Shown here piece by piece: positions 1 to 51,874 of a stretch of DNA of 64,000 nt. Every line of letters begins with the position of its first letter. Within the stretch, counting starts at the first letter, position 1. The notes under the pieces were generated by a model. That model did no database searches. It was given only the letters and a program-made list of their open reading frames with translations, and was not told the origin of the DNA. Source of the DNA: Leucoraja ocellata (lineage: Eukaryota); contig JAWMAR010002559.1 in NCBI GenBank assembly GCA_036785375.1, positions 1 through 64,000 of the forward strand, given 5' to 3'. The translations under genes were made by a program, and so were the position numbers.

Positions 1-215
1 TGGAACCAGAGCTCAGCGTATTCCACCCCCTCGCCACCCAAAGCTACTAGTGGAGTAGCTCCTCTAGTGACTTTGCTCGCCACTGTGCCCGGTGTCTCCG
101 CTGCTCAGTACCTCCTGCAGGTTGACGTACACGGCCGATTGCTCTTCCCCTCTCCAAGATTCCCCTCCTCCTTTCCGCTCCGCTGGGGCCGGCCCGTTCT
201 CTCCACTCCCGCGCT
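1..215 (-). pseudogene. Copy A terminal cytoplasmic exon (AVYVNL and VEYAEL ITIM), decayed
   Basis: cctttcctaccag acceptor; homologous to 37759-37911 but 1 nt shorter at the start and interrupted by the insertion at 39-75. VEYAEL codons at 26..9 are intact but out of frame. Confidence 0.8.
39..75. mobile_element. 37-bp TIR mini-element (CAAAG...CTTTG) with 8-bp target duplication CTCGCCAC
   Basis: Imperfect hairpin caaagctactagtggag / ctcctctagtgactttg; duplicated flanks at 30-37 and 76-83; empty site at 37771-37778. Confidence 0.8.
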
Positions 216-1385: not shown

Positions 1386-2074
1386 AAGTCGCACCAGCTT
1401 CTCGTTTTCACCCAACAAACCACTAACAGTGGCCTGTTTCCTTTATCATCGTTACTTTGTTTACATCTATCTTTCATTCATTGTTCTTTATCTCTCTCTA
1501 CATCATCGTCTATATAGAGTCATCCATTGTGGAAACAGGCCCTTCTGCCCAACTTGCCCACACCGGCCAACATGGCCCAGCTACACTAGTCCCACCTGCC
1601 TGCGCTTGGTCCATGTACCTTTCTAACTGTTTCTTAAACGTTGAATAGTCCCAGCCTCAACTACCTCCTCCAGCAGCACGTTCCATACACGCACCACCCT
1701 TTGTGTGAAAAAGTTACCCCTCAGATTTTTTTCCCCTTCACCTTGAACCTATGTCCTCTGGTCCTCGATTCCCCTACTCTGGGCAAGAGACTCTGTGCAT
1801 CTACCCGATCTATTCCTCTCATGATTATATACACATCTATAAGATCACCCCTCATCCCCCTGCGTTTCAAGGAATGGAGTCCCAGCCACCTCAACCTCTC
1901 CCTGTAGCTCAGGCCCCTCGAGTCTTGACCGAAACATCACCTGTTCCTTCTCGTCAGAGATTCTGCCTGTTCCACTGAGTTACTCCAGCTTTTGTACCCA
2001 CGTTTGTATCATCTATAGTTGGGATTAAATACAAAGTTCCACTACCTGATTGGTGGCAGAGTGTGGGCAGTAGA

Positions 2075-2111
2075 TCACATTGGTGTCTTGGTTTCCTGAA
2101 GCATCTTCCTC
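2075..2111 (-). CDS. Copy A cytoplasmic exon, coding part RKMLQETKTPM*
   Basis: The acceptor used in copy B (ctgtag) reads ctgttg here. The next AG (gctgcag) with phase 2 gives a short tail ending at TGA 2075-2077. The exon donor follows position 2046. Confidence 0.6.
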
Positions 2112-3775: not shown

Positions 3776-3875
3776 GGCAGTATATACTTGTAGATGAAGA
3801 ATCCAGCTAGCACAGCGCTCAGTATTATTATCCCTGTTCTGAGCAAAACTTGCATCCAAATACTGAAGCTTTTAT
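3776..3875 (-). CDS. Copy A transmembrane exon, KSFSIWMQVLLRTGIIILSAVLAGFFIYKYILP
   Basis: ttcttacag acceptor (phase 1), CC|gtaagt donor (phase 2), hydrophobic helix with internal Arg (AGA 3838-3840). Confidence 0.85.
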
Positions 3876-9066: not shown

Positions 9067-9360
9067 CTTCCATCGACAGATACACCACGAACATGGCTTC
9101 CCCGTGCCGGTTTCGGACTGAGCACAAGGCCGTCACGTCCTCTCCTCCCCCACCCCCTCTCAGAGTGAGGGAGCCATTCACCAGATGCCCGCTTGCCACC
9201 TGCCAGGTGTGGAGACGTCCCTGGGTTTGATTTCCGCTGAGGTTGGAGAGGGAAAGTTGCCAGGTGAGCTCTCCGGGTGGGTTGCACCTGGCCGCACACA
9301 CACAGGTGACACTCTCAGGTGTGTGAGTGCATCCCGAATCCCGGGAAATCTCTGGCGCAT
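9067..9360 (-). pseudogene. Copy A membrane-proximal Ig4 exon, open frame but acceptor reads TG
   Basis: (Y)APEISRDSGCTHTPESVTCVCAARCNPPGELTW...ALCSVRNRHGEA, 294 nt, donor G|gtgagg. The C-x7-CxC pattern resembles the last Ig domain of MAG/CD33-related Siglecs. Preceded by ccctctccTG instead of AG. Confidence 0.75.
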
Positions 9361-12521: not shown

Positions 12522-13239
12522 ATTCTACAGTGAGGGTCACATCCCTCTCTGCTGTCCCATGGTCATTCTCCGCCACACATTGATAGACCCCAGCGTCCTT
12601 CCCTGTCAGCTGAGGGAATTGAAAAGACTAGGCTTGTATTCACTGGAGTTTAGAAGGATGAGGGGATATCTTATAGAAACATATAAAATTATAAAAGGAC
12701 TGGACAAGGTAGATGCATGAAAATGTTCCCAATGTTGGATGAGTCCAGAACCAGCACCACAGTCTTAGAACAAAGGGGAAGCCATTTAAGACTGAGGTGA
12801 GAAAAAACTTTTTCACCCAGAGAGTTGTGAATTTGTGGAATTCCCTGCCACAGAGGGAAGTGGAGGCCAAGTCACTGGATAGATTTAAGAGAGAGTTAGA
12901 TAGAGCTCTAGGGACTAGTGGAATCAAGGGATATGGGGAGAAGACAGGCACGGGTTATTGATTGGGGACGATCAGCCATGATCACAATGAATGGCGGTGC
13001 TGGCTCGAAGGGCCGAACGGCCACCTCCTGCACCTATTTTCTATGTCTATGTCTATGTCCATCCACAGCTCGTTGCTGGAACGTGTTGTGTTCAGCGTGA
13101 CACCGATGTCTCCACATCAGGTTAGACGCTGGGAAACTCTGGAGGGAGCAGAGGATCGCTGCAGAGTTTCCTTCCTTTATACTGACGCAGGAATTGTTCA
13201 CATTGTCGGGGGATGTGATTGAGAGATTCTGGGGGGCGT
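12522..13239 (-). pseudogene. Copy A disrupted Ig3 exon (frameshift plus CR1 insertion)
   Basis: 5' half 13057-13239: YAPQNLSITSPDNVNNSCVSIKEGNSAAILCSLQSFPASNLMWRH, frameshift ~13105, then GVTLNTTRSSNELWMD. 3' half 12522-12618: FPQLTGKDAGVYQCVAENDHGTAERDVTLTVE then gt. Confidence 0.9.
12619..13056 (+). mobile_element. 5'-truncated CR1 inserted in the Ig3 exon (paralog 48337-48772)
   Basis: LGLYSLEFRRMRG.LIETYKI, CR1 3'UTR and (CTATGT)n tail, flanked by contiguous Ig coding halves. Confidence 0.9.
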
Positions 13240-14120: not shown

Positions 14121-14414
14121 ATTCCACAGTCAGTGGGAGGATCTGCTCCGATGACACAGTTGGGTATGTGACTCTGCAGGTGAGGTTTTGCCCGTGATGT
14201 TTGAGCGCTGGGGTCAGGGACAGAACAGAAGTATATGTCAGAGTGTCACCCTGCTGAGTTACGCTGTGTGAGGCTGACGGTGGTTCATCAGCGGGGGTGA
14301 CCCAGGTTAAGGTGGGTGCCGTTCCATCACACGTGGTGTTGAAGGAGCAGGTCATGTTCACAGGCTTTCCTGCCACCAATTCAGCAGGGAATATCGTGGG
14401 TTTATCCGTGAAAT
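14121..14414 (-). CDS. Copy A C2-set Ig exon (98 codons)
   Basis: tgtgttag acceptor, T|gtaagt donor. DFTDKPTIFPAELVAGKPVNMTCSFNTTC...LTW...HHGQNLTCRV...LTVE, typical Siglec domain 2 with the extra Cys. Confidence 0.93.
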
Positions 14415-14870: not shown

Positions 14871-15239
14871 CAGTAACACTGAGCTTTGTTACAGGGTGGT
14901 AGTTGTAAACATCTCCCCCATCGAATTCAACTCTGAACAAATAAGGACCTGCATCTTGCTGCGTGACGTTGTCTATGACCAGGGAACAGTCGTTGTCTAT
15001 CAGGATTCCTGACAGCCGGGTCCGATGCTGAAACTTTGTTGATTCTAGACTGTGATCCCCGGAGTGGAAGGCTACAGGACCTTTGTTGGTGTGCGACCAA
15101 CTGTTAAACCAGATTCCAGTCCGTGGTTTACTGTTCAGTCCCGACGGGTACGTGTAGTTACACGGAATCCGTGCACACAAACCGTTCTGCGCTGTCACAG
15201 CTCCGGGAATGTCCGCTCTCCACTCTCCCGACATCACGG
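14871..15239 (-). CDS. Copy A Siglec-type V-set Ig exon (123 codons)
   Basis: ttctctcctcag acceptor, G|gtaagt donor, phase 1-1. Siglec signatures GLCARIPC, NDCSL, and DAGPYLFRVE with the F-strand Arg (AGA 14932-14934). Confidence 0.93.
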
Positions 15240-15575: not shown

Positions 15576-15615
15576 CTTGGAGAAGGGAGAGGAGGAAGAA
15601 CGATCTCCCGATCAT
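15576..15615 (-). CDS. Copy A signal-peptide exon, MIGRSFFLLSLLQ(A)
   Basis: ATG at 15615 (acaATG), hydrophobic core, phase-1 donor AAG|GTACC. Acceptor ctttctcttccag opens the exon at 15657. Joins the V exon as ...LLQAVMSGEW. Confidence 0.85.
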
Positions 15616-17189: not shown

Positions 17190-17592
17190 ATTGGGGGGAT
17201 GAATGTGGGGGGTGAGTGTGGGGGGAAGTGTGGGGGGTGAGTGTGGGGGGGTGAGTGTGGGGGTGAGTGAAGTGGGGAAGGGGTATGGGGAAGGGGGGGT
17301 GTGTGGGAGTGTTGGGGCGGGGAAGGGTGTGTGTGGTGTGTGGTGGAGGGAGTTGGGGAAGTTGGGGTGGGGAGGGGGGGTGTAGGGGAGGGGGGGTGTA
17401 GGGGAGGGGGGTGTATGGTAGGGGGGTGTAGGAGAGGAGGGGTGTAGGGGAGGGGGGATGTGGGAGGGGGAGTGTGGGAGGGGGGGCATGTGGGTGGGGT
17501 GGTGTAGGGGGAGGGGTGGGGAGGGGGGTGTAGGTGAGGGGGGGGTGTGTGGGGGAGGGGGGTGTAGGGGAGGTGGGTGTAGGGGAGGGGGG
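17190..17592. repeat. G-rich low-complexity tract (also ~22790-22920 and 53100-53249)
   Basis: Direct inspection. Confidence 0.9.
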
Positions 17593-18736
17593 TCAACAGC
17601 CCACACTCTGCTGCTTCAGCTTTATTCTCGGCAGCTTCTGGACGGGCGACATCTGAACCATTTTTGAGCAAATTTAGAAACAACACAGAGGGGAAGTGGT
17701 CAAGATGAGAGTTTTAGTAATAGTGTAGACAGAAGATAGATTGTATCAGGATGCATCGCAGCTTGCTTTGGGAACAGCTCCATCCAAGATCGCAACAGGT
17801 CCTTCGGCCCACCATGTCCATGCCAGCCCTTTTTTCAGCCCATCTATTGGTCTGATTGTATAATTGCCATGTGTACCAGAATTCAGTGTTTGCACGCAAC
17901 CCAGGCTGGTCGTACTGTATAAGGTCATAAGAGATAGGAGCAGAATTAAGCCATTCGGCCCATCAAGTCTGCTCCACCATTCAACCATGGCCGATATATC
18001 TCTATCTCCTAACCCCATTCTCCTGCCTTCTCCCCATAACCTCTGACACCAGTACAAATCAAGAATCAATCCGTCTCAGCCTTAAATAATCCACTGACTT
18101 AGCCTCTACAATGCACTGTGGTAAAGAATTCCACAGATTCACCACCCTCTGACTGAAGATGTCCTTCCTCATCTCCTTCCTAAAAGAACATCCTTTAATT
18201 CTGAGGCTGTAATCTCTGGTCCTAGACTCTCCCACTAGTGGAAACATCCTCTCCATGTTCACTCTATCCAAGCCTTTCATTATTCTGTATGTTCCCCCCT
18301 CATTCTGCTAAACTCCAGCGAGTACAGGCCCAGTGCTATCAAACGCTCATCATATGTTAACCCACTCATTCCAGGGATCATTCATGTAAACCTCCTCTGG
18401 ACCCTCTCCAGAGCCAGCACATCCTTCCTCAGATTGGGGCCCAAAATTGCTGACAATATTGAGTACGATATATACTGAGAGTCATGGGAGAGGGAGACAC
18501 AGAAATACCTTTCTGTCCTGGGCCTCCTTCACTGTTCGAGTCAGGCCCAACGCAAATTGGGAAACAGCACCTCATATTACGCTTGGGCAGCTTACACCGG
18601 TACGATTATCGACTTCTCTAACTTCGTCGCCTTGCTTTCCCTCTGTCTCCATCCCTCCTCTTTCCTATTCTACAACCAGTCTGACCGTCCTCTTGACGGT
18701 CTTGTGGGAATGAGCGACAGACACGGAATTACGTAC

Positions 18737-18812
18737 CTGGGTTCTGTCCGCTGGTCAAGTATCGACTGACAAACACTCAGGGAGCCAGTGTCCTGATCCT
18801 CAGCGGCCGTCA
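18737..18812 (-). other. Candidate 5'UTR exon of copy A (duplicate at 24067-24142)
   Basis: Island with no TE signature, ttctccacacag acceptor and CAG|gtacgt donor, next to GGAAGT motifs. The leader exon has an acceptor, so an upstream exon is expected. Confidence 0.4.
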
Positions 18813-18900
18813 CTGTGTGGAGAACACAAATGTGTAGAGGGGTAGATTAGCATCTGGAAACGGAAGTAAAATAAGGAAGTATTCTTTTATCAGCAAACGG

Positions 18901-20734
18901 GTAAGTAAGTTAGTAAGTAAGTTTATTGGCCAAGTATTTACATACAAGGAATTTGCCTTGGTGCTCCGCCCACAAGTAACAACATGACATACAGTGACAG
19001 TTACGAATAACTCAGAAAACACTAAACAATAATAATGATAAAACATTAATGATAAAACACCATTGATCAAGCATGTGAACCAACAAAATACCAGATCAAA
19101 GGGAGGCTACAGATTTTTGGCTGTTGAGTAGAGCAACTACTCGTGGATAAAAACTGTTTTTATGTCTGGCTGTGGCAGCTTTGACAGTCCGGAGTCGCCT
19201 TCCAGAGGGAAGTAATTTAAAGAGTATGTGGCCAGGGTGAGAGGGGTCAGAGATGATCTTGCCCGCTCGCTTCCTGACCCTTACAGTGTACAGTTCATCA
19301 ATGGAGGGAAGGTTGCAGCCAATAACCTTCTCTGCTGATCGGACGATTCGCTGCAGCCTCCAGGTGTCGTGCTTGGTGGCTGAGCCAAACCAGACCATGA
19401 TGGAGAAGGTGAGAACAAACTCTACGATGGCCCTGTAGAATTGGACCATCATTGCCAGTGGCAGATTGTGCTTCCTCAGCTGCCATAGGAAGTACATCCT
19501 CTGTTGTGCCTTTTTGACTGTTAAGTCGATGGTAGCCCACTTAAGGTCCTTGAGATGATGGTTCCCAGGAACTTAAAAGACTCCACTGATGTGACTGTGG
19601 TGTTGTTGATGGTGAGTGGGGAACGGGAGGGAGAAGATCTCCTAAAGACTACAATCAATTCCACTGTCTTAAGAGCATTGAGCTCTAGGTTGTTGCGATG
19701 GCACCAGGACGCCAGCTGTGACAACTCGAGGACAACTCCTGTCTGTAGGCAGATTCCTCCCCATCCTGGATCAGTACAATCAGGCTTGTGCCATACACAA
19801 ACTTTAGAAGCTTGACAGAGGTGTCTGTGGAGGTGCAGTCGTTGGTGTAGAGCGAGTAGCGGAGAGCGCCTTGCGGTGCTCCTATGCTGAGCGTTTGCGG
19901 GTCCAAGATGTGCTTTCCCAGCCTCACATGCTACTTCCAGTCTGTCAGGAAGCTGGTGATCCACCGACAGAGAGGTTCAGGCACAGTCAACTCGGAAAGT
20001 TTGGAGTGTAATAGCACTGGCACAATGGTGTCGATTGCAGAGCTAAAATCAACAAACAGGATCCTTGAATAGGTCCCCTGGCGGTCTAGGTGCTGTAGGA
20101 TGAAGTGCAGGCCCAGGTTGACTGCTTCATCCACAGATCTATTGGCCCAATATGCAAACTGCACAGGGTCCAGCAGTGGGATTGTGATATTTTTCAGCTT
20201 GGCCAGCACAAGCGTTTCAAGTGTCTTCACGACTACAGAGGTCAGTGCAACAGGCCAGGGTAATCCTTGCCTTTTTGGGTACAGGGACAATAGTGGAGAC
20301 TTTGAAGCAGGCAGGGACAGTACATGTTTCCAGGGACTGGTTCAAAATGTCTGTATAGACCGTTGTTTGGCACAGAGCTTAAGAGTAGAGGGGGAAACAT
20401 TGTCAGGTCCTAGAGATTTACGGCTTTTTTGTCTTCTGAAAAGCCTCTCCGCCTCCTGATGAAGTGATGTTGCTCAGCAAGGAGGGTGTGGGTAATTGGG
20501 TGTGAAGTGGTGATTGCAGGGGGGTGGGTGTAGAAGGGCCCAGTCTTTGCAGACTATCTGGCTGTGAATGGGTGTGAAGTGTTGGTTGGGGTGGGAAATG
20601 GTTCTGTCGTTTCATAGTGTAGTCTTGCCTTAAATAGATGTAAAGTGATGAATGGGAAGGAGAGGGTGCAGGGTCGATTCTTTGCAGACTGGGGTCTGGC
20701 TGTGTTAGTTGGGGAGGGCGGCAGGGGGAGTGGT
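18901..20734 (-). mobile_element. Rex1/Babar-like LINE, truncated duplicate
   Basis: RT motifs PVALTSVV, QFAY, RILFVDFSSA, FKFLG; (AAGT)n tail; frameshifted. Confidence 0.85.
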
Positions 20735-21699
20735 TACCCCTCAGATTGCAATTAACATTTTTCCCCCTCTCACCTTAAATCAATGTCCTTTGGTCCTCGA
20801 TTCACCTACTCTGTGCAAGAGACACTGTGTGTCTACCCGATCTATTCCTCTCATGATTTTATGCATCTGCATAAGATCACCCCTCATCCTCCTGCGTGCA
20901 AGGAATAGCATCCCAGCGACCCATTCCTGGTAACATCCTCATAAATCTTCTCCGTACCCATTCCAGCTGAAAACATCTTTCCGATCACATGGTGCCCAGA
21001 ACTGAATGCACATATTCTGAATGCGGCTTCACCAACGGCTTACACAACTGCAACAGAACCTTCCGATTTCTGAACTGTGCAAACTGTGTGAGCAGGTGTG
21101 AATGGGTCCAAAGCCTGGCAAGTGATAGTGGATACAGGTGAGGGGGGCAGATGATTAGACTAGGTGGGAGAATCTAAGTACAGAGGTCACAGCCACAGAA
21201 TTGAAGGACGTTCTTCTGGGAAGGCGATAAGAAGGAATTTCTTCGGTCAGAGGATGGCGAGTGTGGAATTATTTGCCACACAAGGCTGTGGAGGCCGTCA
21301 ATTAATATTTTTTTAAGGTACAAAATACACCAGATAGATTCTTGATTAGTACGGGTGTCAGGGGTTATGGGGAGAAGGCAGGAGAATGGGTTGAGAGGGA
21401 ATGATAGACCAGCCATGATTGAATGTTTGCTGTAGACTTGATGGGCCGAACGGCTTAATTCGGCTCCTATCATAAGGTCATCAGGAATAGGAGTAGAAGA
21501 ATGTCTTTTAATTCTGAGGCTGTGACCTCTACTCCTAGACTCATCCAATGGTGGAAATATCCTCTTAACATCCACTCTATCCAAGCCTTTCACTATTCTG
21601 TATTTTTCAATGAGGTCCCCCCTCATTCTTCTCAACTCCAGCGAGAACAGCCCCAGTGCCAACAAGCGCTGATCATAGGTTAATCTCGTGATTACCATA

Positions 21700-22470
21700 T
21701 AACCATATAACAATTATAGCACGGAAACAGGCCATCTCGGCCCTTCTAGTCCGTGCCGAACACTTATTCTCCCCTAGTCCCATCTATCTGCACTCAGACC
21801 ATAACCCTCCATTCCTTTCCCGTCCATCTACCTATCCAATTTATTTTTAAATGATAAAATTGAACCTTCCTCCAGCACTTCCACTGGAAGCTCATTCCAC
21901 ACCGCTACCACTCTGAGTAAAGAGATCCCCCTCATATTACCCCATAACTTCTGTCCCTTAATTCTCAAATCATGTCCTCTTGTTTGAATCTTCCCTACTC
22001 TCAATGGAAAAAGCTTATCCACGTCAACTCTGTCTATCCCTCTCATCATTTTAAAGACCTCTATCAAGTCTCCCCTTAAACTTCTGCGCTCCAAAGAATA
22101 AAGACCTAACCTGTTCAACCTTTGTCTGTAACTTAGTTGCTGAATCCCAGGCAACATTCTAGTAAATCTCCTCTGTACTCTCTCTATTTTGTTGACATCC
22201 TTCCTATAATTTGGCGACCAAAATTGTACACCATACTCCAGAATTGGCCTCACCAATGCCTTGTACAATTTTAACATTCCTGGGATCATTCTTGTAAACC
22301 TCCTCTGGATCCTCTCCAGAGCCAGCACATCCTTCCTCAGATACGGTGCCCAAAATCGCTCACAATATTCCAAATGCGGCCTCACCAGCACCTTATGGAG
22401 CCTCAACATTATACCCCACGTTTTTGTATAAAACCCTCTTGAAATAAATGCTAGCGTTGACTTTGCTCTC
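21700..22470 (-). mobile_element. Nested CR1 3' fragments (paralogs ~30162-30940 and ~55180-55960)
   Basis: Two successive VRPxLEY...RRFTRM motifs in ORFs 21828-22487, 30365-30961 and 55370-55981. Confidence 0.85.
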
Positions 22471-22494
22471 TTTACTACTGTCATCACTATAACT

Positions 22495-22650
22495 TATGAA
22501 GTGGCAGAGACTCGAGAGGCCCAACGACTTCTTGATATATGAGGAAGTAACAGGAAATTTAGTGCAGAAAATGAAAATGTTCATTCACAGAATGAAGGGA
22601 AATGTATTCATTTGCATCCTCACGTCTGAGTTCCCCAGAGGTGAGGGTGC
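22495..22650. promoter_or_regulatory. ETS/PU.1 plus IRF motif cluster (related copies ~27975, 30970, 53558, 55990)
   Basis: GAAGTG, GAGGAAGT, CAGGAAA and GAAAATGAAA within ~80 bp of sequence showing no TE signature, upstream of the gene. Confidence 0.35.
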
Positions 22651-24230
22651 AAAACACTCCCTTTATTCATTGTGGAAACAAAGTTCTGGAGGAACTCACG
22701 GATCTGTGGGGGTTAGACACAAAGTGCTGGAGTAACTCAGCGGGACGGGCAGCATCTCTGTAGAGAAGGAATGGGTGATGTTTCGGGTGTGTAGGGGAGG
22801 GGGGTGTAAGGGAGGGGGGGTGTAGGGGAGGGGGATGTGGGAGGGGGTTGTAGGGGAGTGGGGGTGTAGGGGAGGGGGGGTGTGTGGGAGGGGGTGGGGG
22901 AGGGGGGATGTGGGAGGGGGCTCAACAGCCCACACTCTGCTGCTTCAGCTTTATTCTCGGCAGCTTCTGGACGGGCGACATCTGAACCGTTTTTGAGCAA
23001 ATTTAAAAACAACACAGAGGGGAAGTGGTCAAGATGAGAGTTTTAGTAATAGTGTAGACAGAAGATAGATTGTATCAGGATGCATCGCAGCTTGCTTTGG
23101 GAACAGCTCCATCCAAGATCGCAACAGGTCCTTCGGCCCACCATGTCCATGCCAGCCCTTTTTTTGGCCCATCTATTGGTCTGATTGTATAATTGCCATG
23201 TGTACCAGAATTCAGTGTTTGCACGCAACCCAGGCTGGTCGTACTGTACAAGGTCATAAGTGATAGGAGCAGAATTAAGCCATTCGGCCCATCAAGTCTG
23301 CTCCACCATTCAATCATTGCAGACCTATCTCTATCTCCTAACCCCATTGTCCTGCCTTCTCCCCATAACCTCTGTCACCAGTACAAATCAAGAATCTATC
23401 CGTCTCAGCCTTAAATAATCCACTGACTTAGCCTCTACAGTCTACTGTGGCAAAGAATTCCACAGATTCACCACCCTCTGACTGAAGATGTCCTTCCTCA
23501 TCTCCTTCCTAAAAGAACATCCTTTAATTCTGAGGCTGTAATCTCTAGTCCTAGACTCTCCCACTAGTGGAAACATCCTCTCCACGTTCACTCTATCCAA
23601 GCCTTTCATTATTCTGTATGTCCCTCCCTCATTCTGCTAAACTCCAGCGAGTACAGGCCCAGTGCTATCAAATGCTCATCATATGTTAACCCACTCATTC
23701 CTGGGATCATTCATGTAAACCTCCTCTGGACCCTCTCCAGAGCCAGCACATCCTTCCTCAGATATGGGGCCCAAAATCGCTCACAATATTGAGTACAATA
23801 TATACTGAGAGTCATGGGAGAGGGAGACACAGAAATACCTTTCTGTCCTGGGCCACCTTCACTGTTCGAGTCAGGCCCAACGCAAATTGGGGAACAGCAC
23901 CTCATATTACGCTTGGGCAGCTTACACCGGTACGATTATCGACTTCTCTAACTTCGTAACCTTGCTTTCCCTCTGTCTCCATCCCTCCTCTTTCCTATTC
24001 TACAACCAGTCTGACCGTCCTCTTGACGGTCTTGTGGGAACGAGCGACAGACACGGAATTACGTACCTGGGTTCTGTCCGCTGGTCGAGTATCGACTGAC
24101 AAACACTCAGGGAGCCAGTGTCCTCATCCTCAGCGGCTGTCACTGTGTGGAGAACACAAATGTGTAGAGGGGTAGATTAGCATCTGGAAACGGAAGTAAA
24201 ATAAGGAAGTATTCTTTTATCAGCAAACGG

Positions 24231-26545
24231 GTAAGTAAGTAAGTAAGTAAGTTTATTGGCCAAGTATTTACATACAAGGAATTTTCCTTGGTGCTCCGCC
24301 CACATGTAACAACATGACATACAGTGACAGTTACGAATAACTCAGAAAACACTAAACAATAATAATGATAAAACATTAATGATAAAACACCATTGATCAA
24401 GCATGTGAACCAACAAAATAACAGATCAAAGGGAGGCTACAGATTTTTGGCTGTTGAGTAGAGCAACTACTCGTGGATAAAAACAGTTTTTATGTCTGGC
24501 TGTGACAGCTTTGACAGTCCGGAGTCGCCTTCCAGAGGGAAGTGATTCAAAGAGTATGTGGCCAGGGTGAGAGGGGTCAAAGATGACCTTGCCCGCTCGC
24601 TTCCTGGCCCTTGCAGTGTATAGTTCATCAATGGAGGGAAGGTTGCAGCCAATAACCTTCTCTGCTGATCGGATGATTCGCTGCAGCCTCCAGGTGTCGT
24701 GCTTGGTGGCTGAGCCAAACCAGACCATGATGGAGAAGGTGAGAACAAACTCTACGATGGCCGTGTAGAATTGGACCATCATTGCCAGTGGCAGATTGTG
24801 CTTCCTCAGCTGCCGTAGGAAGTACATCCTCTGTTGTGCCTTTTTGACTGTTAAGTCGATGGTAGCCCCCCCACTTAAGGTCCTTGAGATGATGGTTCCC
24901 AGGAACTTAAAAGACTCCACTGATGTGACTGTGGTGTTGTTGATGGTGAGTGGGGAACGGGAGGGAGATGATCTCCTAAAGACTACAATCAATTCCACTG
25001 TCTAAAGAGCATTGAGCTCTAGGCTGTTGCGATGGCACCAGGAAGCCAGCTGTGACAACTCCAGGCCAACTCCTGTCTGTAGGCAGATTCCTCCCCATCC
25101 TGGATCAGTACAATCAGGCTTGTGCCATACACAAACTTTAGAAGCTTGACAGAGGTGTCTGTGGAGGTGCAGTCGTTGGTGTAGAGAGAGTAGAGGAGAG
25201 GAGAGCACCTTGCGCTGCTCCTATGCTGAGCGTTTGCGGGTCCAAGATGTGCTTTCCCAGCCTCACATGCTACTTCCAGTCTGTCAGGAAGCTGGCGATC
25301 CACCGACAGAGAGGTTCAGGCACAGTCAACTCGGAAAGTTTGGAGTGTAATAGCACTGGCACAATGGTGTCGATTGCAGAGCTAAAATCAACAAACAGGA
25401 TCCTTGAATAGGTCCCCTGGCGGTCTAGGTGCTGTAGGATGAAGTGCAGGCCCAGGTAGACTGCTTCATCCACAGATCTATTGGCCCGATATGCAAACTG
25501 CACAGGGTCCAGCAGGGGGATTGTGATATTTTTCAGCTTGGCCAGCACAAACGTTTCAAGTGTCTTCACGACTACAGAGGTCAGTGCAACAGGCCAGGGT
25601 AATCCGTGCCTTTTTGGGTACAGGGAAAATAGTGGAGACTTTGAAGAAGGCAGGGTCAGTACATGTTTGCAGGGACTGGTTCAAAATGTCTGTATAGACC
25701 GTTGTTTGGCACAGAGCTTAAGAGTAGAGGGGGAAACATTGTCAGGTCCTAGAGATTTACGGCTTTTTTTGTCTTCTGAAAAGCCACTCCGCCTCCTGAT
25801 GAAGTGATGTTGCTCAGCAAGGAGGGGGTGGGTAATTGGGTGTGAAGTGGTGATTGCAGGGGGGTGGGTGTAGAAGGGCCCAGTCTTTGCAGACTATCAG
25901 GCTGTGAATGAATGTGACGTGTTGGTTGGGGTGGGAAATGGTTCTGTCGTTTCATAATGTAGTCTTGCCTTAAATAGATGTAAAGTGATGAATGGGAAGG
26001 AGAGGGTGCAGGGTCGATTCTTTGCAGACTGGGGTCTGGCTGTGTTAGTTGGGGAGGGCGGGAGGGGGAGTGGTGGAGTGGGGGAGAGGGTACCAGGGTT
26101 ACGTTTATGATTTTCAAACCTGTAGTAAACTCATTCAGGCCGTTGGTCAGTTGACGATTGTGCAAAGAGCGGGGGGCTTTCATCTTGTAGCTGGTAATTT
26201 CTTGCAAGCCCTTCCAAACTGAAGACGAGTCACTAGCTGAGAACTTGCTCTGCAATTTCTCAGAGTACTTTTCCTTGGCAGCTCTGATTCCTCTTCTCAG
26301 CTTGTACTTGGCCTGCCAGTAGAGGCCTGCATCCCCGCTCCTGTAGGCCTCCTCTTTAGACTGTCGAAGCTGTCTGAGTTTTGCAGTGAACCAGGGCTTG
26401 TTGTTGTTGAACCATGTCCGGGTCTTAGTGGGAATGCAACTGACCTCGCAAAAGCTGACATATGATGATACAGTGTCCGTATACTCATCGAGGCTTGTGG
26501 TGGCTTCCCTGAACACATTCCAATCCGTGCAGTCAAATCAGGATT
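24231..26545 (-). mobile_element. Rex1/Babar-like LINE, degenerate ORF
   Basis: NNKPWFT, DPVQFAYRANRS, FKFLG, KKAQQRMYFLRQL, DPSHPGH motifs; (AAGT)n tail. Confidence 0.88.
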
Positions 26546-29448
26546 CACCAACTGATTCCTGGGATGTCAGGACTTTCATGTGAAGAAAGACTAGATAGAC
26601 TCGGCTTGTACTCGCTAGATTTTAGAATATTGAGGGGGGATCTCATTGAAACTTAAGGGGTTGGACAGGCTAGATGCAGGAAGAATGTTCCCGATGTTGG
26701 GGAAGTCCAGAACGAGGGGTCACACAGTTTAAGGATAAGGAGGAAATCTTTTAGGACCGAGATGAGACAAACATTTTTCACACAGAGAGTGGTGAATCTG
26801 TGGAATTCTCTGCCACAGAAGATAGTTGAGGCCAGTTCATTGGCTATATTTAAGAGGGGGTTTGATGTGGCCCTTGTGGCTAAAGGGATCAGGGGGTATG
26901 GAGAGAAGGCAGGTACGGAATACTGAGTTGGATGATGGTCTCTTGTCTCTACACCCCTCCCTGTCAAATTGGAGGTATGTAAACTAACGGGTGTGCCAGC
27001 TTCCTGTTCCACAGTGCCATGGTTAGGTTGCTGATTTGGATAAGACTGCACTGATTCAAGAATTGTTTAGGAAAGAACTGCAGATACTGGTTTGGACAGG
27101 CAGCATCTCTGGGTAGAAGAAGGGTCTCCACCCGAAACATCACCCATACCTTCTCTCCAGAGATGCTGCCTGACCCGCTGAGTTAATGATTCAAGAATGT
27201 GTGGAATTGTGCAAGGCAAGTTTGCTCAACTAATTATGCAAAGTTTTATAATAAATTAGCAGAGGGTCAGAACCAAGAACAGAGAACAGCACAGGAACAG
27301 CCCCTTCGACCTAAAATGTCCGTCCCAAACATAATGCCAAGTTAATCTCCTTGCCTGTACATAATCTGGAATTCTGCATTCCCTGCATGTCCATGTGCCT
27401 ATCTCAAGGCCACCAAAACACCACCATCACCGCTGCATCGACCATCACCCCTAGGCACCACCACTCTCTGGGTAAAAAACAATCCCCACACATTTTAGAT
27501 CTCGTTAACTTTTGAGATACAGCGTGGAAACAGGCCCCTCGGCCCATTGAGTCCGCGCCGACCATCGATCACCCGTTCACACACTAGTTCTATGTTTAGT
27601 TTTGAGATACAGCGCGGAAACAGGTCCTTCGGCCCATCAAGTCCGTGCCAGCCAGCGATCCCTGCACAGTAACACCATTCGATACACACGAGGGACAATT
27701 TTACATTGAAACCAAGCCAATTAACCTACAAACTCGTACGTCTTTGGAGTGTGGGAGGAAACCAAAGGTCTCGGAGAAAATCCACGCAGGTCACGGGAAG
27801 AACGTGCAAACTCCGTACAGCGCACATAGTCGGGATTGAACCCAGGTCTCTGGAGCTGTGAGGCAGCAACTATACCGCTGTGCCACCCTGCCGCCTCTTT
27901 CAGTTTCCCCCCCCTCTGATTTTAATTAGCCCCGTAAGTTATTCCTGGTGTATGAGTAAGAGTCATGGAATCAGTGAAGTGGCAGAGACTTGAGAGGCCC
28001 AACAACCTCTTGCTTCACGAGGAAGTGGACAGAAGTAGTAACAGGAAACTTTCTGTGAAAAATGAAAATGTCCTTTTTGCAGAAGGAAAAATGTATCAAA
28101 CAGCTCCCCAAAGCTGAGATGCAGAACAGTCCCTTTATTAATCAAGAAAGCAAAGTGCTGGAGGAACTGAGCGGATCTGCGGAGGGAGTGGACTAGTATC
28201 ACCAGTTCCTTCTTTCCACAAATGACATTTCAGATTGAGTCCAGACTGAAGGAGTAGAGTAGAAAACTGGAAAAGCAAGGTCATAGTCAGAGTGATACCA
28301 CATGGAAACAGGGCCTTCGACCCAACTTGACCACACCGGCCAACATGTCCCAGCTACACTAGTCCCACCTGCCCACGTTTGGTCCATATCCCTCCAAACC
28401 TGTCCTACCCGTGTACCAGCCTGTTTCATAAACATTGGGATAGCCAATGCCTCAACTACCTCCTCTGGCAGCTTGTTCCATGCACCAAACACCCTTTGTG
28501 AAAATGTTACCCCTCAGATTCCAATTAACCTTTTTCCCCCACTCACCTTAAACCAATGTTCTTTGGTCCTCGATTCACCTACTCTGGGCAAGAGACACTG
28601 TGTGTCTACCCGATCTATTCCTCTGCATCTGCATAAGATCACCCCTCATCCTCCTGCGTGCAAGGAATAGCATCCCAGCCTACCCATTCCTGGCAACATC
28701 CTCATAAATCTTCTCCGTACCCATTCCAGGTGAAAACATCTTTCCGATCACATGGTGCCCAGAACTGAATGCACATATTCTAAATGCGGCTTCACCAACG
28801 GCTTACACAACTGCAACATAACCTCCCGATTTCTAAACTGTGCAAACTGTGTGAGCAGGTGTGAATGGGTCCAAAGCCTGGCAAGTGATAGTGGATACAG
28901 GTGAGGGGGGCAGATGATTAGACTAGGTGGGAGAATCTAAGGACAGAAGTCACAGCCACAGAATTGAAGGACGTTCTTTTGGGAAAGCGATAAGAAGGAA
29001 TTTCTTCGGTCAGAGGATGGCGAGTGTGGAATTATTTGCCACACAAGGCTGTGGAGGCCGTCAATTAATATTTTTTAAGGTACAAAATACACCAGATAGA
29101 TTCTTGATTAGTACGGGTGTCAGGGGTTATGGGGAGAAGGCAGGAGAATGGGTTGAGAGGGAAAGATAGACCAGCCATGATTGAATGTTCGCTGTAGACT
29201 TGATGGGCCGAATGGCTTAATTCGGCTCCTATCATAAGGTCATCAGGAATAGGAGTAGAAGAATGTCTTTTAATTCTGAGGCTGTGACCTCTACTCCTAG
29301 ACTCACCCAATAGTGGAAATATCCTCTTAACATCCACTCTATCCAAGCCTTTCACTGTTCTGTATTTTTCAATGAGGTCCCCCTTCATTCTTCTCAACTC
29401 CAGCGAGAACAGGCCCAGTGCCAACAAGCGCTAATCATAGGTTAACCT

Positions 29449-30160
29449 CCATTGAGGATAAATGGCTATCCTGTGGATAGGGTGAACTGTTTCAAATATC
29501 TGGGAGTCCACATCTCTGAGGATATGACATGGGCATCACACGCCTCAGCAATCGTGAGTAAGGCAAGGCAGCGCCTTTACCACCTCAGGCAATTGAAGAA
29601 ATTCAGAGTGTCTCCGAGGATCCTCCAGTGCTTCTACGCAGCGGCGGTGGAAAGCATCTTGTCCGGGAACATTACCATCTGGTTTGGGAATTGCTCTGCC
29701 AAGGACAAGAAAGCTCTGCAGAGAGTAGTGCGTTCGGCCGAACGCACTATGGGAACTTCACTCGCCCCCCTGCAGGAACTATACAACAGGAGGTGCAACT
29801 CCAGAGCAAACAAAATCATGGGAGACCCCTTCCACCCCTGCAACGGACTGTTCCAGCTGCTACGTTCAGGCAAATGCCTCCGTTGCCATGCGGTGAGAAC
29901 GGAGAGGTTGAGGAGGAGTTTCTTCCCAGAGGCAATTCGGACTGTAAACGCCTATCTCACCAGGGACTAACTCTACAGAACGTTTTTCCTTCCATTATTT
30001 ATTATGTAAAAGAATATGTGTGTTATGATTGTGTTTAGAATTTGTTTGGTTGTTTTGTTGTTTGTCTTTTGCACAAAAGTCCGCGAGCATTGCCACTTTC
30101 ATTTCACTGCACATCTCGTATGTGTATGTGACAAATAAACTTGACTTGACTTGACTTGAC
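29449..30160 (+). mobile_element. Young Rex1/Babar-like 3' fragment, present in one of three paralogous sites
   Basis: Open 172-aa frame with FKYLGVHI and KARQRLYHLRQL; AATAAA plus (ACTTG)n tail; empty sites at ~21687 and ~55178. Confidence 0.88.
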
Positions 30161-31654
30161 TTGATTACCATATAACCATATAACAATTATAGCATGGAAA
30201 CAGGCCATCTCGGCCCTTCTAGTCCGTGCCGAACACTTATTCACCCCTAGTTCCATCTATCTGCACTCAGACCATAACCCTCCATTCCTTTCCCGTCCAT
30301 CTACCTATCCAATTTATTTTTAAATGATAAAATTGAACCTGCCTCCACCACTTCCACTGGAAGCTCATTCCACACCGCTACCACTCTGAGTAAAGAAGTC
30401 CCCCCTCATGTTACCCCATAACTTCTGTCCCTTAATTCTCAAATCATGTCCTCTTGTTTGAATCTTCCCTACTCTCAATGGAAAAAGCTTATCCACGTCA
30501 ACTTTGTCTATCCCTCTCAACATTTTAAAGACCTCCATCAAGTCCCCCCTTAACCTTCTGCGCTCCAAAGAATAAAGACCTAACCTGTTCAACCATTGTC
30601 TGTAACTTAGTTGCTGAATCCCAGGCAACATTCTAGTAAATCTACTCTGCACTCTCTCCATTTTGTTGACATCCTTCCTATAATTTGGCGACCAAAATTG
30701 TACACCATACTCCAGAATTGGCCTCACCAATGCCTTGTACAATTTTAATATTCCTGGGATCATTCTTGTAAACATCCACTGGACCCTCTCCAGAGCCAGC
30801 ACATCCTTCCTCAGATACGGTGCCCAAAATCGCTCACAATATTCCAAATGCGGCCTCACCAGCACCTTATGGAGCCTCAACATTATACCCCTGTTTTTGT
30901 ATAAAAGCCCTCTTGAAATAAATGCTAGCGTTGACTTTGCTCTCTTTACTACTGTCATCACTATAACTTATGAAGTGGCAGAGACTCGAGAGGCCCAACG
31001 ACTTCTTGATATATGAGGAAGTAACAGGAAATTTAGTGCTAAAATTGAAAATGTTCCTTCACAGAATGAAGGGAAATGTATTCATTTGCATCCTCACGTC
31101 TGAGTTCCCCAGAGGTGAGGGTGCAAAACACTCCCTTTATTCATTGAGGAAACAAAGTTCTGGAGGAACTCAGCGGGTCTGTGGGGGTTAGACACAAAGT
31201 GCTGGAGTAACTCAGTGGGACGGGCAGCATCTCTGTAGAGGAGGAATGGGTGACATTTCGGGTCGAGGCCCTTCTTCAGACTGAGAGTCAGGGGAGAGGG
31301 AAACAAGAGATATAGTCGGTGAAAAAATGAGAAAATAAATTTTTACACAGAGAGTGGTGAATCTGTGGAATTCTTTGCCACAGAAGGTAGTTGAGGCCAG
31401 TTCATTGGCTATATCTAAGAGGGAGATAGATGTGGCCCTTGTGGCTAAAGGGATCAGGGGGTATGGAAAGAAGGCAGGTATGGGATACTGAGTTGGATGA
31501 TCAGTCATGATCATATTGAATGGCGGTGCAGGCTTGAAGGGCCGAATGGCCTACTCCTGCACCTATTTTCTATGTTTCTATGTGATATAGAGAGATATAA
31601 AACAAATGAATGAAAGATATCCTAAAACAGTAACAATGGTAAAGGAACCAAGCC

Positions 31655-33200
31655 ATTCTTCTTCCGTGTGGCGTGCACGGCCTAAATTGCCGTCGCGACA
31701 TCAACCGCTTCAACGTCTCCACTCCCCTGTCTCACTCCAATCTCTCCCACCCCCCACCCTATGAATGTACAGCCATCGACTCACACCTGGACAATGTCCC
31801 CACTGACGAGCACCAGGCCACTTTCACTAGCACCATCGCCGACTTCACCAACGCCCTTGCCCCCCCCTGAGCCGCCTGCCTCATCGTTCCCCAGCCCCGC
31901 ACGGCCTGATTTTACCTTCTCCCCAAAATCCACAAACTTGACTGTCCTGGCAGACCCATTGTCTCTGCCTGTTTGTGCCCCACCAAACTCATTTCCACAT
32001 ACCTTGACTCCATCCTATCCCCCTTGGTTAAATCCCTCCCGACCTATGATCAAGACACCTCAGACACTCTCCGTCGTCTCCGCACGTTCCATCCTCTAGG
32101 CCCCCATCCTCTCATCTTCACCATGGACGTCCAGTCACTCTACACCTCCATCCCCCACCAGGATGGTCTCAAAGCCCTCCGGTTCTTCCTCGACCGGTGG
32201 AGCAACCTATACCCGGCCACCGATACTCTCCTGCGCCTAGTGGAGTTGGTCCTTACCCTCAATAACTTCTCGTTCGACTCCTCCCATTTCCTCCATATAC
32301 AAGGCGTAGCTATGGGCACACGCATGGGGCCCAGCTACACCTGCCTCTTTGTTCGAGGCGTATCTTGGCCCCATCCCCGACATCTACCTCCGCTACATCG
32401 ACGACTGCTTTGGTGCCACTTCCTGCACCTGCACACAACTGACTGACTTCATCCGCTTCACCACTAACTTTCATCCGGCACTCAAATAAACCTGGATCAT
32501 TTTCGACACTTCCCTACCATTCCTTGACCTTACTATCTCCATTTCAGACTTCTGACCGACATCCACTATAAACCCACTGACTCCTACGGCTATCTTGACT
32601 ACTCTTCCTCCCACCCTGCTTCCTGTAAGGACTCCATCCCCTATTCCCAATTCCTCCGTCTACGCCCAGGATGAGATTTTCCATACCAGGGCCTCACAAA
32701 TGTCCTTATTCTTCAGGGAACGGGGGTTCCCCTCCCCCACTATAGATCAGGCACGCACCAGGGTCTCTGCTCTCTCTCCCCATCCCCCCACTCGCAACAA
32801 GGGCAGAGTCCCCCTGGTCCTCACCTTTCACTCCACTAACCGTCACATACAACAAATAGCCCTTCGTTAGTTTCACCACCTCCAACGTGACCCCACCACT
32901 CACCACATCTTCCCATTTCCCCCCGTCTGCCTTCCACAAAGACCGCTCCCTCCGCAATTCCCTTGTCAATTCTTCCCTTCCCTCCCGTACTACCCCCTCC
33001 CTGGGCACTTTCCGTTGCAACCGCAAGAGATGCTACACCTGTCGCTTTTCCTCCCCCCTTGACTCCATTCAAGGACCCAATCAGTCGTTCCAGGTGCAAC
33101 AGAGGTTCACCTGCACCTCCTCCAACCTCATCTATTGCATCCGCTGCTCTAGATGTCAGCTGATCTATATCGGTGAAACCAAGCGGAGGCTTGGCGATCG
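31655..33200 (+). mobile_element. Penelope-like element, RT plus GIY-YIG, degenerate (paralogous pieces ~56675-57840 and ~59455-60090)
   Basis: FTMDVQSLYTSIPH, QGVAMGTRMGPSY, RYIDD, IYCIRC...YIGET motifs. Confidence 0.9.
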
Positions 33201-33203
33201 TTC

Positions 33204-33870
33204 CTGTGCATGGGGGAGAGGGTAGGGCTGAAGATGTCCTGGTTGGGTTGCTCCTGGGACTGGTCAAGCTGGCCATCCTCAAGTCACAGGGTCAGGCAGA
33301 AGAGGGCTCTGCCTGAGCCAGCTGCCTGCCCCTTTTCCGTGCCCGGGTGGTGTTAGAGAGGGACTACGCACCAAAGATCCTATAGCGGAGCAAGATAGAC
33401 CACTCCTGCTAAATGCAATGGGCTGACGTGTAGTACGCAACGGAAAGGAACGTGGGCCTTTTTTACATCCATTTCCGTAACCGGACCCGACCCGACTCGC
33501 AGTGTAATCAACGCTGCGGGGGATCAGTTTGTGTTAATACATTAAAATTCTGAAAATGAGAAGAAGGTTTTTACCAACTAACTTTTATTTTTACGAGGAT
33601 GTTCCCGTAACCGGCTTCCGTCTTCGCACTATTATCCTATGGGATCTGTGGTGCGGCGATGGAAGCCGGTTACGGGAATGGGGCCTTAAATTACCCATGA
33701 ATATGCCCATGACCGTACTATGTCTTTTGGTCGAGTGGACGATCTTGCTCGCTGTAGGATCTTTGCTACACACTGTCCACGGGCAACCTGGGGGATTTGC
33801 CGCACCGTTGGGCACGGCGGGGGGTGGAATGCATCCTTGACAAGGATTGTAACATAGTTGTATAGTCGTT
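33204..33870 (+). mobile_element. Tx1-like LINE 3' fragment interrupted by a MITE
   Basis: DVLVGLLLGLVKLAI...CLPLFR...ARVVLERDY, recognised as a Tx1 ORF2 C-terminal pattern. Confidence 0.6.
33372..33765. mobile_element. MITE with ~33-bp TIRs (CAAAGATCCT...) and 8-bp TSD (paralog 60586-63493, split by CR1)
   Basis: TIRs caaagatcctatagcggagcaagatagaccactc / gagtggacgatcttgctcgctgtaggatctttg; flanks ctacgcac / ctacacac; internal inverted repeat ~33601-33680. Confidence 0.85.
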
Positions 33871-37463: not shown

Positions 37464-37758
37464 TCAATATTTACCCGCGGAAGTCTGGGTTCTAAAGAAC
37501 AAAGGCTTTTTTAAAGAGATACAGCGGGAAAACAGGCCCTTCAGCCCACCGAGTCCGCACCGACCATCGGTCATCCGTTCACACACTAGTTCTATGTTAT
37601 CCCACTATTTCATCTACAGAGGGTTAATTAATCTATGAAACCCAAGGTAGTTAAGGCTGGTGCAGCGCTCTCTCCCCATCGCCTCTCCCTCCTCACCACC
37701 CTTCCCTCCATCCTCCCACCTACCCCTTCCCCTGCTTGGACTGGAACCAGAGCTCCGC

Positions 37759-37911
37759 CTATTCCACCCCCTCGCCACTGTGCCCGGTGGCTCCGCTGCT
37801 CAGCACCTCCTGCATGTTGGCGTACACGGCCGATTGCTCTTCCCCCTCGCCTGATTCCCCTCCTTCTTTCCGCTCCACTGGGGCCGGCCCGTTCTCCCCA
37901 CTCCCCGCGCT
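37759..37911 (-). CDS. Copy B terminal exon, SAGSGENGPAPVERKEGGESGEGEEQSAVYANMQEVLSSGATGHSGEGVE*
   Basis: ccctttccttccag acceptor, phase 0. TAG at 37759-37761 sits where copy A has TAC (ITIM Tyr). The frame continues AELWFQSKQGKG to TAG at 37720-37722. Confidence 0.8.
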   Translation of the reverse strand, partial: SAGSGENGPAPVERKEGGESGEGEEQSAVYANMQEVLSSGATGHSGEGVE

Positions 37912-39194: not shown

Positions 39195-39267
39195 CTGATT
39201 GGTGGCAGATTGTGGGCAGTAGATCACATTGGTGTCTTGGTTTCCTGAAGCATCTTCCCTCCAGCAG
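39195..39267 (-). CDS. Copy B cytoplasmic exon, (H)CWREDASGNQDTNVIYCPQSATNQ
   Basis: cttctgtag acceptor (phase 2) and CAG|gtagtg donor (phase 0) link the TM and terminal exons in frame. Confidence 0.72.
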
Positions 39268-40174: not shown

Positions 40175-40271
40175 TGCAGTATATACTTGTAGATGATGAA
40201 TCCAGTTAGCACAGCCACCAGTATTATCCTTGCTGTAAGCAAAACTGCCTTCCAAATACTGAAGCCTTTAT
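40175..40271 (-). CDS. Copy B transmembrane exon, KGFSIWKAVLLTARIILVAVLTGFIIYKYIL(H)
   Basis: tttttacag acceptor, CA|gtaagt donor, internal Arg (AGG 40228-40230). Confidence 0.85.
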
Positions 40272-48239: not shown

Positions 48240-48955
48240 ATTCTACAGTGAGGGTCACATCCCTCTCTGCTGTCCCATGGTCATTCTCCGCCACACATTG
48301 ATAGACCCCAGCGTCCTTCCCTGTCAGCTGAGGGAATTGAAAACACTAGGCTTGTATTCACCGGAGTTTAGAAGGTTGAGGGGATATCTTATAGAAACAT
48401 ATAAAATTATAAAAGGACTGGACAAGGTAGATGCATGAAAAATGTTCCCAATGTTGGGCGAGTCCAGATCCAGGGGCCACAGTCTTAGAATAAAGGGGAA
48501 GCCACTTAAGACTGAGGTGAGAAAAAAAAATTTCACCCAGAGAGTTGTGAATTTGTGGAATTCCCTGCCACAGAGGGAAGTGGAGGCCAAGTTACTCGAT
48601 GGATTTAAGAGAGAGTTAGAGCTCTAGGGGCTAGTGGAATCAAGGGATATGGGGAGAAGACGGGCACGGGTTATTGATTGGGGACGATCAACCATGATCA
48701 CAATGAATGGCGGTGCTGGCTCGAAAGGCCGAATGGCCTCCTCCTGCAACTATTTTCTATGTCTATGTCTATGTCCATCCACAGCTCGTTGCTGGAACGT
48801 GTTGTGTTCAGCGTGACACCGATGTCTCCACATCAGGTTAGACGCTGGGAAACTCTGGAAGGAGCAGAGGATCGCTGCAGAGTTTCCTTCCTTTATACTG
48901 ACCCAGGAATTGTTCACATTGTCGGGGGAAGTGATTGAGAGATTCTGGGGGGCGT
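48240..48955 (-). pseudogene. Copy B disrupted Ig3 exon
   Basis: Halves at 48773-48955 and 48240-48336, with the same frameshift and the same CR1 insertion site as copy A. Confidence 0.9.
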
Positions 48956-49837: not shown

Positions 49838-50131
49838 ATTCCACAGTCAGTGTGAGGGTCTGCTCCGATGACACAGTTGGGTATGTGACTCTGCAGGTGA
49901 GGTTTTGTCCGTGATGTTTGAGCGCTGGGGTCAGGGACAGAACAGAAGTATATGTCAGAGTGTCACCCTGCTGAGTTACGCTGTTTGAGGCTGACGGTGG
50001 TTCATCAGCGGGGGTGACCCAGGTTAAGGTGGGTGCCGTTCCATCACACGTGGTGTTGAAGGAGCAGGTCATGTCCACAGGCTTTCCTGGCACCAATTCA
50101 GCAGGAAATATCGTGGGTTTATCCGTGAAAT
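49838..50131 (-). CDS. Copy B C2-set Ig exon
   Basis: 294 nt, AG/GTAAGT, 5 aa differences from copy A. Confidence 0.93.
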
Positions 50132-50587: not shown

Positions 50588-50956
50588 CAGTAACACCGAG
50601 CTGTGTTGCAGGGAGGTAGTTGTACTTATTTCCCCCTCCGAAATCAACTTTGAAAAAATAAGGACCTGCATCTTGCGGCGTGACGTTGTCTATAACCAGG
50701 GAACAGTCGTTGTCTATCAGGATTCCTGACAGCCGGGTCCGATGCTGAAACTTTGTTGATGCTAGACTGGGATTCCCGGAGTGGAAGGCTACAGGACCTT
50801 TGTTGTCGTACGACCCACTGTTAAACCAGATTCCAGTCCGTGGTTTATTGTTCAGATCCGACGGGTACGTGTAGTGACACGGAATCCGTGCACACAAACC
50901 ATTCTGCGCTTTCACAGCTCTGGGATTCCATGCACCCCACTCTCCCGACATCACGG
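50588..50956 (-). CDS. Copy B Siglec-type V-set exon with essential Arg>Lys
   Basis: 369 nt, phase 1-1, donor G|gtaatt. GLCARIPC and NDCSL retained; DAGPYFFKVD with AAA at 50649-50651. Confidence 0.93.
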
Positions 50957-51834: not shown

Positions 51835-51874
51835 CTTGGAGAAGGGAGAGGAGGAAGAACGATCTCCCGATCAT
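51835..51874 (-). CDS. Copy B signal-peptide exon
   Basis: Same peptide as copy A. ATG at 51874, donor AAG|GTACC, exon opens at 51916. Confidence 0.85.

Follow-up and report, generated by a model that had tools for sequence, protein, structure and literature searches.

A transmembrane arginine and a 37-bp tail insertion mark a candidate activating lineage of Siglec-like genes in the skate Leucoraja ocellata

Two Siglec-like genes and their transmembrane arginines

The window, by which we mean the whole stretch of 64,000 nucleotides of Leucoraja ocellata DNA analysed here, contains two genes, A and B, both on the minus strand and both composed of a leader exon, a V-set exon, C2-set exons, a transmembrane (TM) exon and two cytoplasmic exons. 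Their best protein matches are skate Siglec-like models, with a V-domain identity of up to 84%, and among solved structures the top matches, with similar scores, are MAG, Siglec-8, sialoadhesin and CD33, MAG ranking slightly above Siglec-8 and CD33. The architecture of Siglecs, an N-terminal Siglec-related V-set domain followed by C2-set domains and one TM helix, is present, and on these sequence similarities the two genes are classed as MAG/CD33-like Siglecs. Between them lie tandem blocks (17439-34273 and 53450-64000) that are 95-97% identical and consist mostly of LINE fragments; the window also includes an assembly gap at 53250-53449.

The leader exon of gene A (15576..15615, ATG at 15615) was located by tblastn with the Amblyraja radiata model P0008. 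It is followed by an in-frame V-set exon (14871..15239), which is recognized by the Pfam V-set profile, matches MAG, Siglec-8, sialoadhesin and CD33 in the PDB and carries the sialic-acid-binding Arg in the motif FRV, and by a first C2-set exon (14121..14414) that is likewise in frame. The next C2 exon (12522..13239) is broken by a 2-nt deletion and by the insertion of a repeat of about 0.4 kb, but as its phase is 1-1 it can be skipped. The membrane-proximal C2 exon (9067..9360), whose best PDB match is domain 5 of MAG, has an open frame, and its acceptor reads CTG instead of CAG. The TM exon (3776..3875, 100 nt) encodes LLRTG and ends in CC before the donor GTAAGT, where the family has CG; its spliced form was found in RNA. 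The first cytoplasmic exon (2046..2111) has 66 nt against 67 in the family and is one G short in a G run, which is either a true lesion or an assembly error. The last exon (3..215) reaches the end of the contig. It contains a palindromic 37-bp insertion (39..75) flanked by an 8-bp target duplication (83-76 and 37-30) and carrying an in-frame TAG (66-64), behind which the codons of the ITIM VEYAEL are still present at 26-9. One-base indels in G runs, at most 2.1 kb from the contig end, shift the frame of the tail exons, and the tail as assembled stops after 11 further residues. Copy A itself is thus partly damaged. By skipping phase-1 exons it could still yield a leader-V-C2-TM product like that of model P0008, whereas inclusion of the broken C2 exon would give a truncated, secreted V-C2 form.

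Gene B has a leader exon (51835..51874, located with the same model by tblastn), a V-set exon (50588..50956) and a first C2-set exon (49838..50131), the latter two in frame. The essential F-strand Arg of the V domain, which aligns with the Arg of MAG and is present in gene A, is replaced by Lys in gene B (FKV). The same exchange was seen in three V exons over both classes of copies (50588-50956, L182 and L214), and an exchange to Thr in L219. The following C2 exon (48240..48955) has the same lesions as that of gene A, and a membrane-proximal C2 exon is missing. Since the broken C2 exon (13239-12522 and 48955-48240 in the window) is common to A, B, other copies and the Amblyraja model P0007, the lesion is old. 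The TM exon of gene B (40175..40271, 97 nt) encodes LLTAR, differs from the family consensus by four changes and ends in CA before GTAAGT. In the first cytoplasmic exon (39195..39261) the acceptor reads CTG in place of CAG, and an in-frame AG lies 6 nt before it. The last exon (37720..37911) is free of the 37-bp insertion, and the tyrosine codon of its ITIM has become TAG (37761-37759).

A first-pass annotation had described arginines at different positions of the two TM helices, and its codons and positions hold: gene A reads LL-R-T-G (AGA ACA GGG, Arg codon 3840-3838) and gene B LL-T-A-R (ACA GCA AGG, Arg codon 40230-40228). Because the family consensus is LLTAG (ACA GCA GGG), each Arg is indeed a single substitution away from an uncharged state, as had been proposed. 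The number of residues between the Arg and the K of the KY motif, 16 in A and 13 in B, was also counted correctly, but these residues, which had been called apolar, are merely uncharged and include T, S, G and Y. In the best 19-residue Kyte-Doolittle window the Arg occupies helix position 4 in A and position 7 in B, the latter being 3 residues closer to the cytoplasm. The suggestion that the Arg is probably buried is not decisive, since an Arg four residues into a TM helix can snorkel.

The two arginines are supported as independent gains, because paralogs and other elasmobranch relatives have no basic residue at this place and because A and B are found in different parts of the TM tree, where the exon of gene B falls within the uncharged group. 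Inhibitory paralogs with an Arg at these sites, which would have spoken against the first-pass interpretation, were not found (0 of 31 ITIM-bearing copies). Both arginines are real and derived, yet they are different in kind, and treating A and B as equivalent cases did not stand: the A-type Arg is present in 11 of the 57 TM exons read, whereas the B-type is found in 2 of 57, is near-private to gene B and is accompanied by other lesions.

The arginine lineage, its tail insertion and its ectodomains

The family was surveyed by two DNA searches of the skate's own genome, each with 40 of 62 candidates scored, and by a tail search with 117 matches. At least 57 TM exons could be read, namely 11 with LLR(T/P)G, 2 with LLTAR and 44 without a basic residue (4 of these 44 with Glu); all of these are minimum numbers, and some of the copies may be haplotype duplicates. 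The family resembles the CD33-related type in being a clustered, fast-evolving multigene family on few contigs, with hypervariable V exons and a majority of ITIM tails.

The 11 LLR exons form one group (support 96/95) in a tree whose alignment kept the columns of the trait itself. On the upstream intron alone the LLR label needs 2 changes against about 10 after shuffling, and a single origin is not rejected. The Arg is retained in 11 of 11 copies, including a two-copy LLRPG subgroup that differs at 4 residues, and only this lineage has a Gln at -4 and one additional codon. The corresponding residue is not basic in skate, ray and shark relatives, and most of their models that reach the tail end in ITIM-type motifs, which points to an uncharged and inhibitory ancestral state. 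On the stem of the LLR lineage in the TM exon 7 changed residues stand against 1 silent change; as an outgroup-like paralog set against the main clade gives the same 7:1 pattern, this is no sign of special selection. Two further candidate gains of the lineage, a Lys-to-Met change above the helix and an Ala at Tyr-2 in the proximal motif, were dropped, since outgroup-like paralogs share both states. These outgroup-like paralogs (L152, L170-L172; P0019, P0030) combine a Glu inside the TM helix (IAEL/IVEL) with an ITIM exon.

Expression was seen in two RNA runs, X1 and X14, which are labelled as a species other than that of the DNA runs best covering the window. A contig from X1 (196 nt, depth 3) differs from the TM exon of gene A in 1 of 96 letters and runs on into the cytoplasmic exon, and in X14 there are 13 reads with loose ends at the TM donor whose consensus matches the next exon. 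Letters diagnostic of the LLR lineage were found in 2 of 14 and 2 of 20 sense reads of X14 at two places and in 0 of 10 at a third. The support for expression is real but thin. A short tail ending directly after the TM helix was ruled out: the TAA behind YIL(P/Q) sits within the GTAAGT donor and RNA reads splice onward into the cytoplasmic exon, so the tail is longer than 4 residues.

The 37-bp insertion with its 8-bp direct repeat is present in all 9 LLR copies for which a last exon was found and in 1 of 44 other copies. All 12 sites that a genome-wide pattern search returned are in this exon, 9 of them in LLR copies, 1 in an uncharged copy and 2 without a linked TM exon. Since the 9 linked copies share descent, the association of Arg and insertion counts as a single event and not as nine, and a Fisher p calculated over the copies exaggerates its strength. 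Read in frame, the insertion places a TAG just ahead of VEYAEL, the only canonical ITIM of the family; in the single copy without Arg that has the insertion (L115), the proximal ITIM is kept. A canonical ITIM occurs in none of the 9 predicted spliced tails of LLR copies and in neither of the 2 from LLTAR copies, but in 31 of 38 from copies whose TM helix has no basic residue, while 4 copies could not be parsed; the 7 uncharged tails that lack it are broken by stops or frameshifts. The LLR tails are open up to the insertion stop in 7 of 9 copies, with a length of about 73 residues and two Tyr.

In its structure the insertion fits a hAT-like DNA-transposon footprint, a superfamily label that we take from the 8-bp target duplication. 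Elsewhere in the genome, 12 more dispersed sites contain the 17-base end motif of the insertion (control 0). Of the dispersed sites L239-L244, some hold CAAAG...CTTTG inserts of 22-55 bp between 8-bp repeats and make up a small repeat family of footprint-like appearance; among 6 end-motif sites inspected (4 of them distinct), inserts with 8-bp repeats were seen by eye in L239/L240, and in L241 with one mismatch.

The LLR module is joined to diverse ectodomains. Linking V and TM exons by position (nearest downstream TM exon on the same strand), we found an in-frame V and C2 in 6 of the 11 LLR copies, 5 of these with the essential Arg, a frameshifted V exon in 2, and no V exon upstream in 3. The V exons of two intact copies, L179 and L189, are identical, and these copies may represent two haplotypes of a single gene. 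A V-exon tree was calculated from 38 sequences, leaving out one LLR duplicate and the unparsed exons; here the LLR label requires 7 changes for its 7 rows, and a single LLR clade is rejected (AU p 7.5e-12). With the LLR V exons scattered in this way, one TM/tail module is attached to numerous V domains of kinds that are also found in ITIM-bearing copies.

Other parts of the family have taken different courses. In one subgroup (L119, L148, L163-L165, L169, L127, L128) the V exons (L198-L200, L203-L205, L217) and the cytoplasmic exons are near-identical, and no TM exon lies within 9.5 kb of the last exon; these copies are possibly secreted Siglecs or have lost the TM exon. On small contigs about 30 near-identical Siglec V exons were flagged with a TGA near their end, and the two that were read (L247, 540-890; L248, 520-870) have a common frameshift near the end; this looks like mass amplification of one broken V exon.

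Candidate adaptors and the competing readings

A zeta-zeta profile search of the genome returned two exons, an intact FcR-gamma-like exon (L225) and a CD3-zeta-like TM exon (L226, G000:C175) with a one-base deletion, while a DAP10 profile gave 0 matches among 23 candidates in this genome. In both adaptor-type exons 15 residues lie between the Asp and the first basic residue on the cytoplasmic side. Compared by depth, the Arg of the A lineage lies 17 above the first cytoplasmic basic residue and the Asp of the FcR-gamma-like exon 16. In the lineage the Arg likewise stands near the helix top and is preceded by the Gln at -4 (Q-V-L-L-R). CD89 binds FcR-gamma via an Arg near the helix top in the sequence QNLIR, and a shift of this Arg by one turn is tolerated, whereas a shift by one residue is not; the accessible part of that study assigns the top-of-helix Arg to the FcR-gamma/zeta pattern and describes DxxxT/S adaptors as mostly taking a central Lys (PMC13107469). 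The NxxR motif of FcR-gamma-coupled Arg receptors, with Asn at -3 according to the available part of the source (PMC2413239), is absent in the A lineage, which has no Asn at -3. The resemblance to FcR-gamma-coupled receptors that the first-pass annotation had pointed out is hence plausible for the A lineage in view of the top-of-helix Arg, the Gln at -4, the depth and the ITIM loss, and is weakened by the lack of NxxR.

The lineage has a basic TM residue in 11 of 11 copies, no ITIM (0 of 9 tails) and an ectodomain shared with ITIM-bearing copies, as would be expected of a paired activating receptor; the short cytoplasmic tail usual for such receptors is absent. We therefore favour, with a probability of about 0.6, the reading that the 11-copy lineage of gene A gained a TM Arg, lost its only canonical ITIM by the 37-bp insertion and is likely an activating member of a paired-receptor system with a predicted adaptor of the FcR-gamma/CD3-zeta type. 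The LLR V domain would bind sialylated ligands, its Arg would pair with the Asp pair of the adaptor, and ITAM/Syk signalling would ensue from this pairing. The tyrosine that remains in the 73-residue tail lies in YxN/YxxM, presumably Grb2/PI3K docking motifs, and may add docking of this kind. The V exons would have been exchanged by gene conversion or recombination.

The main rival to this reading is neutral decay, in which the insertion disabled one inhibitory copy, the Arg arose by drift under relaxed constraint, close enough to the surface of the membrane to snorkel, and a dead or decoy gene was spread by segmental duplication. Such a course would account for the 5 of 11 LLR copies that are broken or orphaned (the 2 with a V frameshift and the 3 without V upstream) and for the several lesions of copy A, with its broken C2 exon, dead next acceptor and frameshifting tail indels, all of which count against an activating receptor; it also suits a locus full of broken copies, an Arg just 4 residues into the best hydrophobic window and an amino-acid change not in excess of that on other branches. 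It is harder to reconcile with an Arg retained in 11 of 11 copies over two subgroups, with 6 copies that have in-frame V and C2 exons and differing V sequences, with 7 of 9 tails open to the insertion stop and with the spliced transcript. Furthermore, some lesions are probably assembly errors, as a one-base indel also affects the CD3-zeta-like exon L226. We regard neutral decay as possible, though on balance improbable. Even less probable, in our view, is an activating lineage that signals not by FcR-gamma but by DAP12/DAP10 or by the YxN/YxxM motifs of its own tail. In human activating Siglecs a positively charged TM residue does provide the link to DAP12, and the LLR tail keeps its Tyr motifs; however, an Arg at the top of the helix follows the FcR-gamma/zeta pattern in the available text of PMC13107469, and the DAP10 search was negative, which is not proof of absence.

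For gene B the balance is a different one, and its Arg is likely a separate, recent and incidental change or a product of decay. The TM exon of gene B has the second most changes among 41 copies, and in the only other copy with an LLTAR exon, L122, a stop lies upstream and the ITIM exon is intact, so that the LLTAR change evidently arises in dead exons. A second, convergent activating conversion, consisting of a new TM Arg and a stop exactly at the ITIM tyrosine, would be in line with the presence of both changes, with a predicted tail that lacks a canonical ITIM, with a leader, V and C2 that are all in frame and with a lost acceptor that could be compensated by the in-frame AG 6 nt upstream. 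The B Arg lies 3 residues below that of A, and CD89 tolerates an Arg one helical turn lower, as stated in the accessible part of PMC13107469. We nevertheless consider a convergent conversion unlikely, since it would concern a single copy in which a weakened donor, the lost acceptor, a Lys in place of the essential V Arg and many TM changes have accumulated, and since the Tyr-to-TAG change is also found in the orphan exon L113.

Paired receptors in other vertebrates and in elasmobranchs

The kind of system proposed here is known; what is new are the lineage, the insertion and the predicted adaptor. Paired primate Siglecs share their ectodomains by gene conversion and are coupled to DAP12, as far as the accessible portions of the respective reports go (PMC13358205, PMC6288428, PMC5701461). 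Like the pairs Siglec-5/-14 and Siglec-11/-16 described there, the LLR copies share V and C2 with ITIM-bearing twins, have a charged TM helix, lack an ITIM and are frequently null. They differ from these pairs in belonging to a cartilaginous fish, in numbering dozens of copies instead of pairs, in an ITIM cut off by an insertion and in the prediction of FcR-gamma/zeta instead of DAP12; their orthology to the CD33-related Siglecs is putative, and their tail of 73 residues is long compared with that of Siglec-14/16. An Arg near the N-terminal end of the helix is shared with CD89, NKp46, LILRA2, GPVI, OSCAR and Xenopus XFL TM1, and the Gln at -4 with CD89 (PMC13107469). The LLR copies are unlike FcR-gamma-coupled Arg receptors in lacking the NxxR Asn at -3 (PMC2413239, available in part) and in having a Siglec ectodomain; the LLR TM helix arose in place from an uncharged Siglec TM helix and was not inherited from the TM1 module of these receptors. 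A close parallel in mode of origin is the activating KIR, for which the accessible text of PMC2213150 reports a gain of TM charge and an ITIM stop on one branch, spread by recombination and a short life. Charge gain, an ITIM-destroying stop and recombination-driven expansion are common to the KIR/Ly49 case, as far as it is covered there, and to the LLR lineage, in which, unlike in KIR, the residue is Arg and not a DAP12-coupled Lys, the stop came with an insertion and not by point mutation, and the ligands are unrelated.

Among elasmobranchs, Amblyraja radiata P0008 and other CD33-like/MAG-like models are similar in the V domain (up to 84% identity) and have a TM exon of the uncharged class together with an ITIM tail. 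Neither LLR(T/P)G nor the insertion-tail motif was found in any of 191 proteins compared. A search with the TM and tail of P0008 matched 2 of 191 candidates, neither with Arg, and a protein search with the TM peptide of A gave a score for none of 66 candidates, the near-identical P0008 included, and is therefore uninformative. Clear TM segments were recognized in 98 of 140 further representatives, and 10 of these segments contain a basic residue. Among them, Siglec-like models of the sharks Chiloscyllium and Scyliorhinus (P0067, P0070, P0078, P0126) have a top-of-helix Arg in LGIR; in three of the four it is followed by a tail of 14-18 residues without an ITIM, and in the fourth the motif lies in a longer model. 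The corresponding module gave just 2 matches in the skate genome, at E 0.8 and in long unrelated frames. The shark Arg/short-tail Siglecs are likely an independent activating lineage, and the difference between their module and that of the skate suggests a recurrent origin. A wider picture, in which cartilaginous fish possess a large paired Siglec system that has repeatedly reinvented activating members, with an insertion and an FcR-gamma-type Arg in the skate, a second conversion under way in gene B, a third Arg/short-tail module in sharks and FcR-gamma/zeta rather than DAP12 as adaptor, is a tentative extension that we hold to be rather doubtful in its entirety.

We found no description of paired Siglecs in cartilaginous fish in a literature of which few subscription journals were covered, so that a prior description is possible; in the available part of the whale-shark genome paper Siglecs are named once, in a list (PMC8455134). 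A study of teleosts reports, in its accessible part, fish genomes without ITIM-bearing CD33-related Siglecs (PMC7226832). In contrast to this claim, dozens of ITIM-bearing Siglec genes are present in the skate, together with a derived ITIM-less Arg lineage. If our reading is true, activating/inhibitory Siglec pairs, known from primates, would be extended to the oldest lineage of jawed vertebrates. As a single insertion marks the switch, one can follow across skates how old it is, whether it came before or after the Arg and what became of it, and the near-isogenic natural pairs would provide a test of how few changes make an inhibitory TM helix adaptor-binding.
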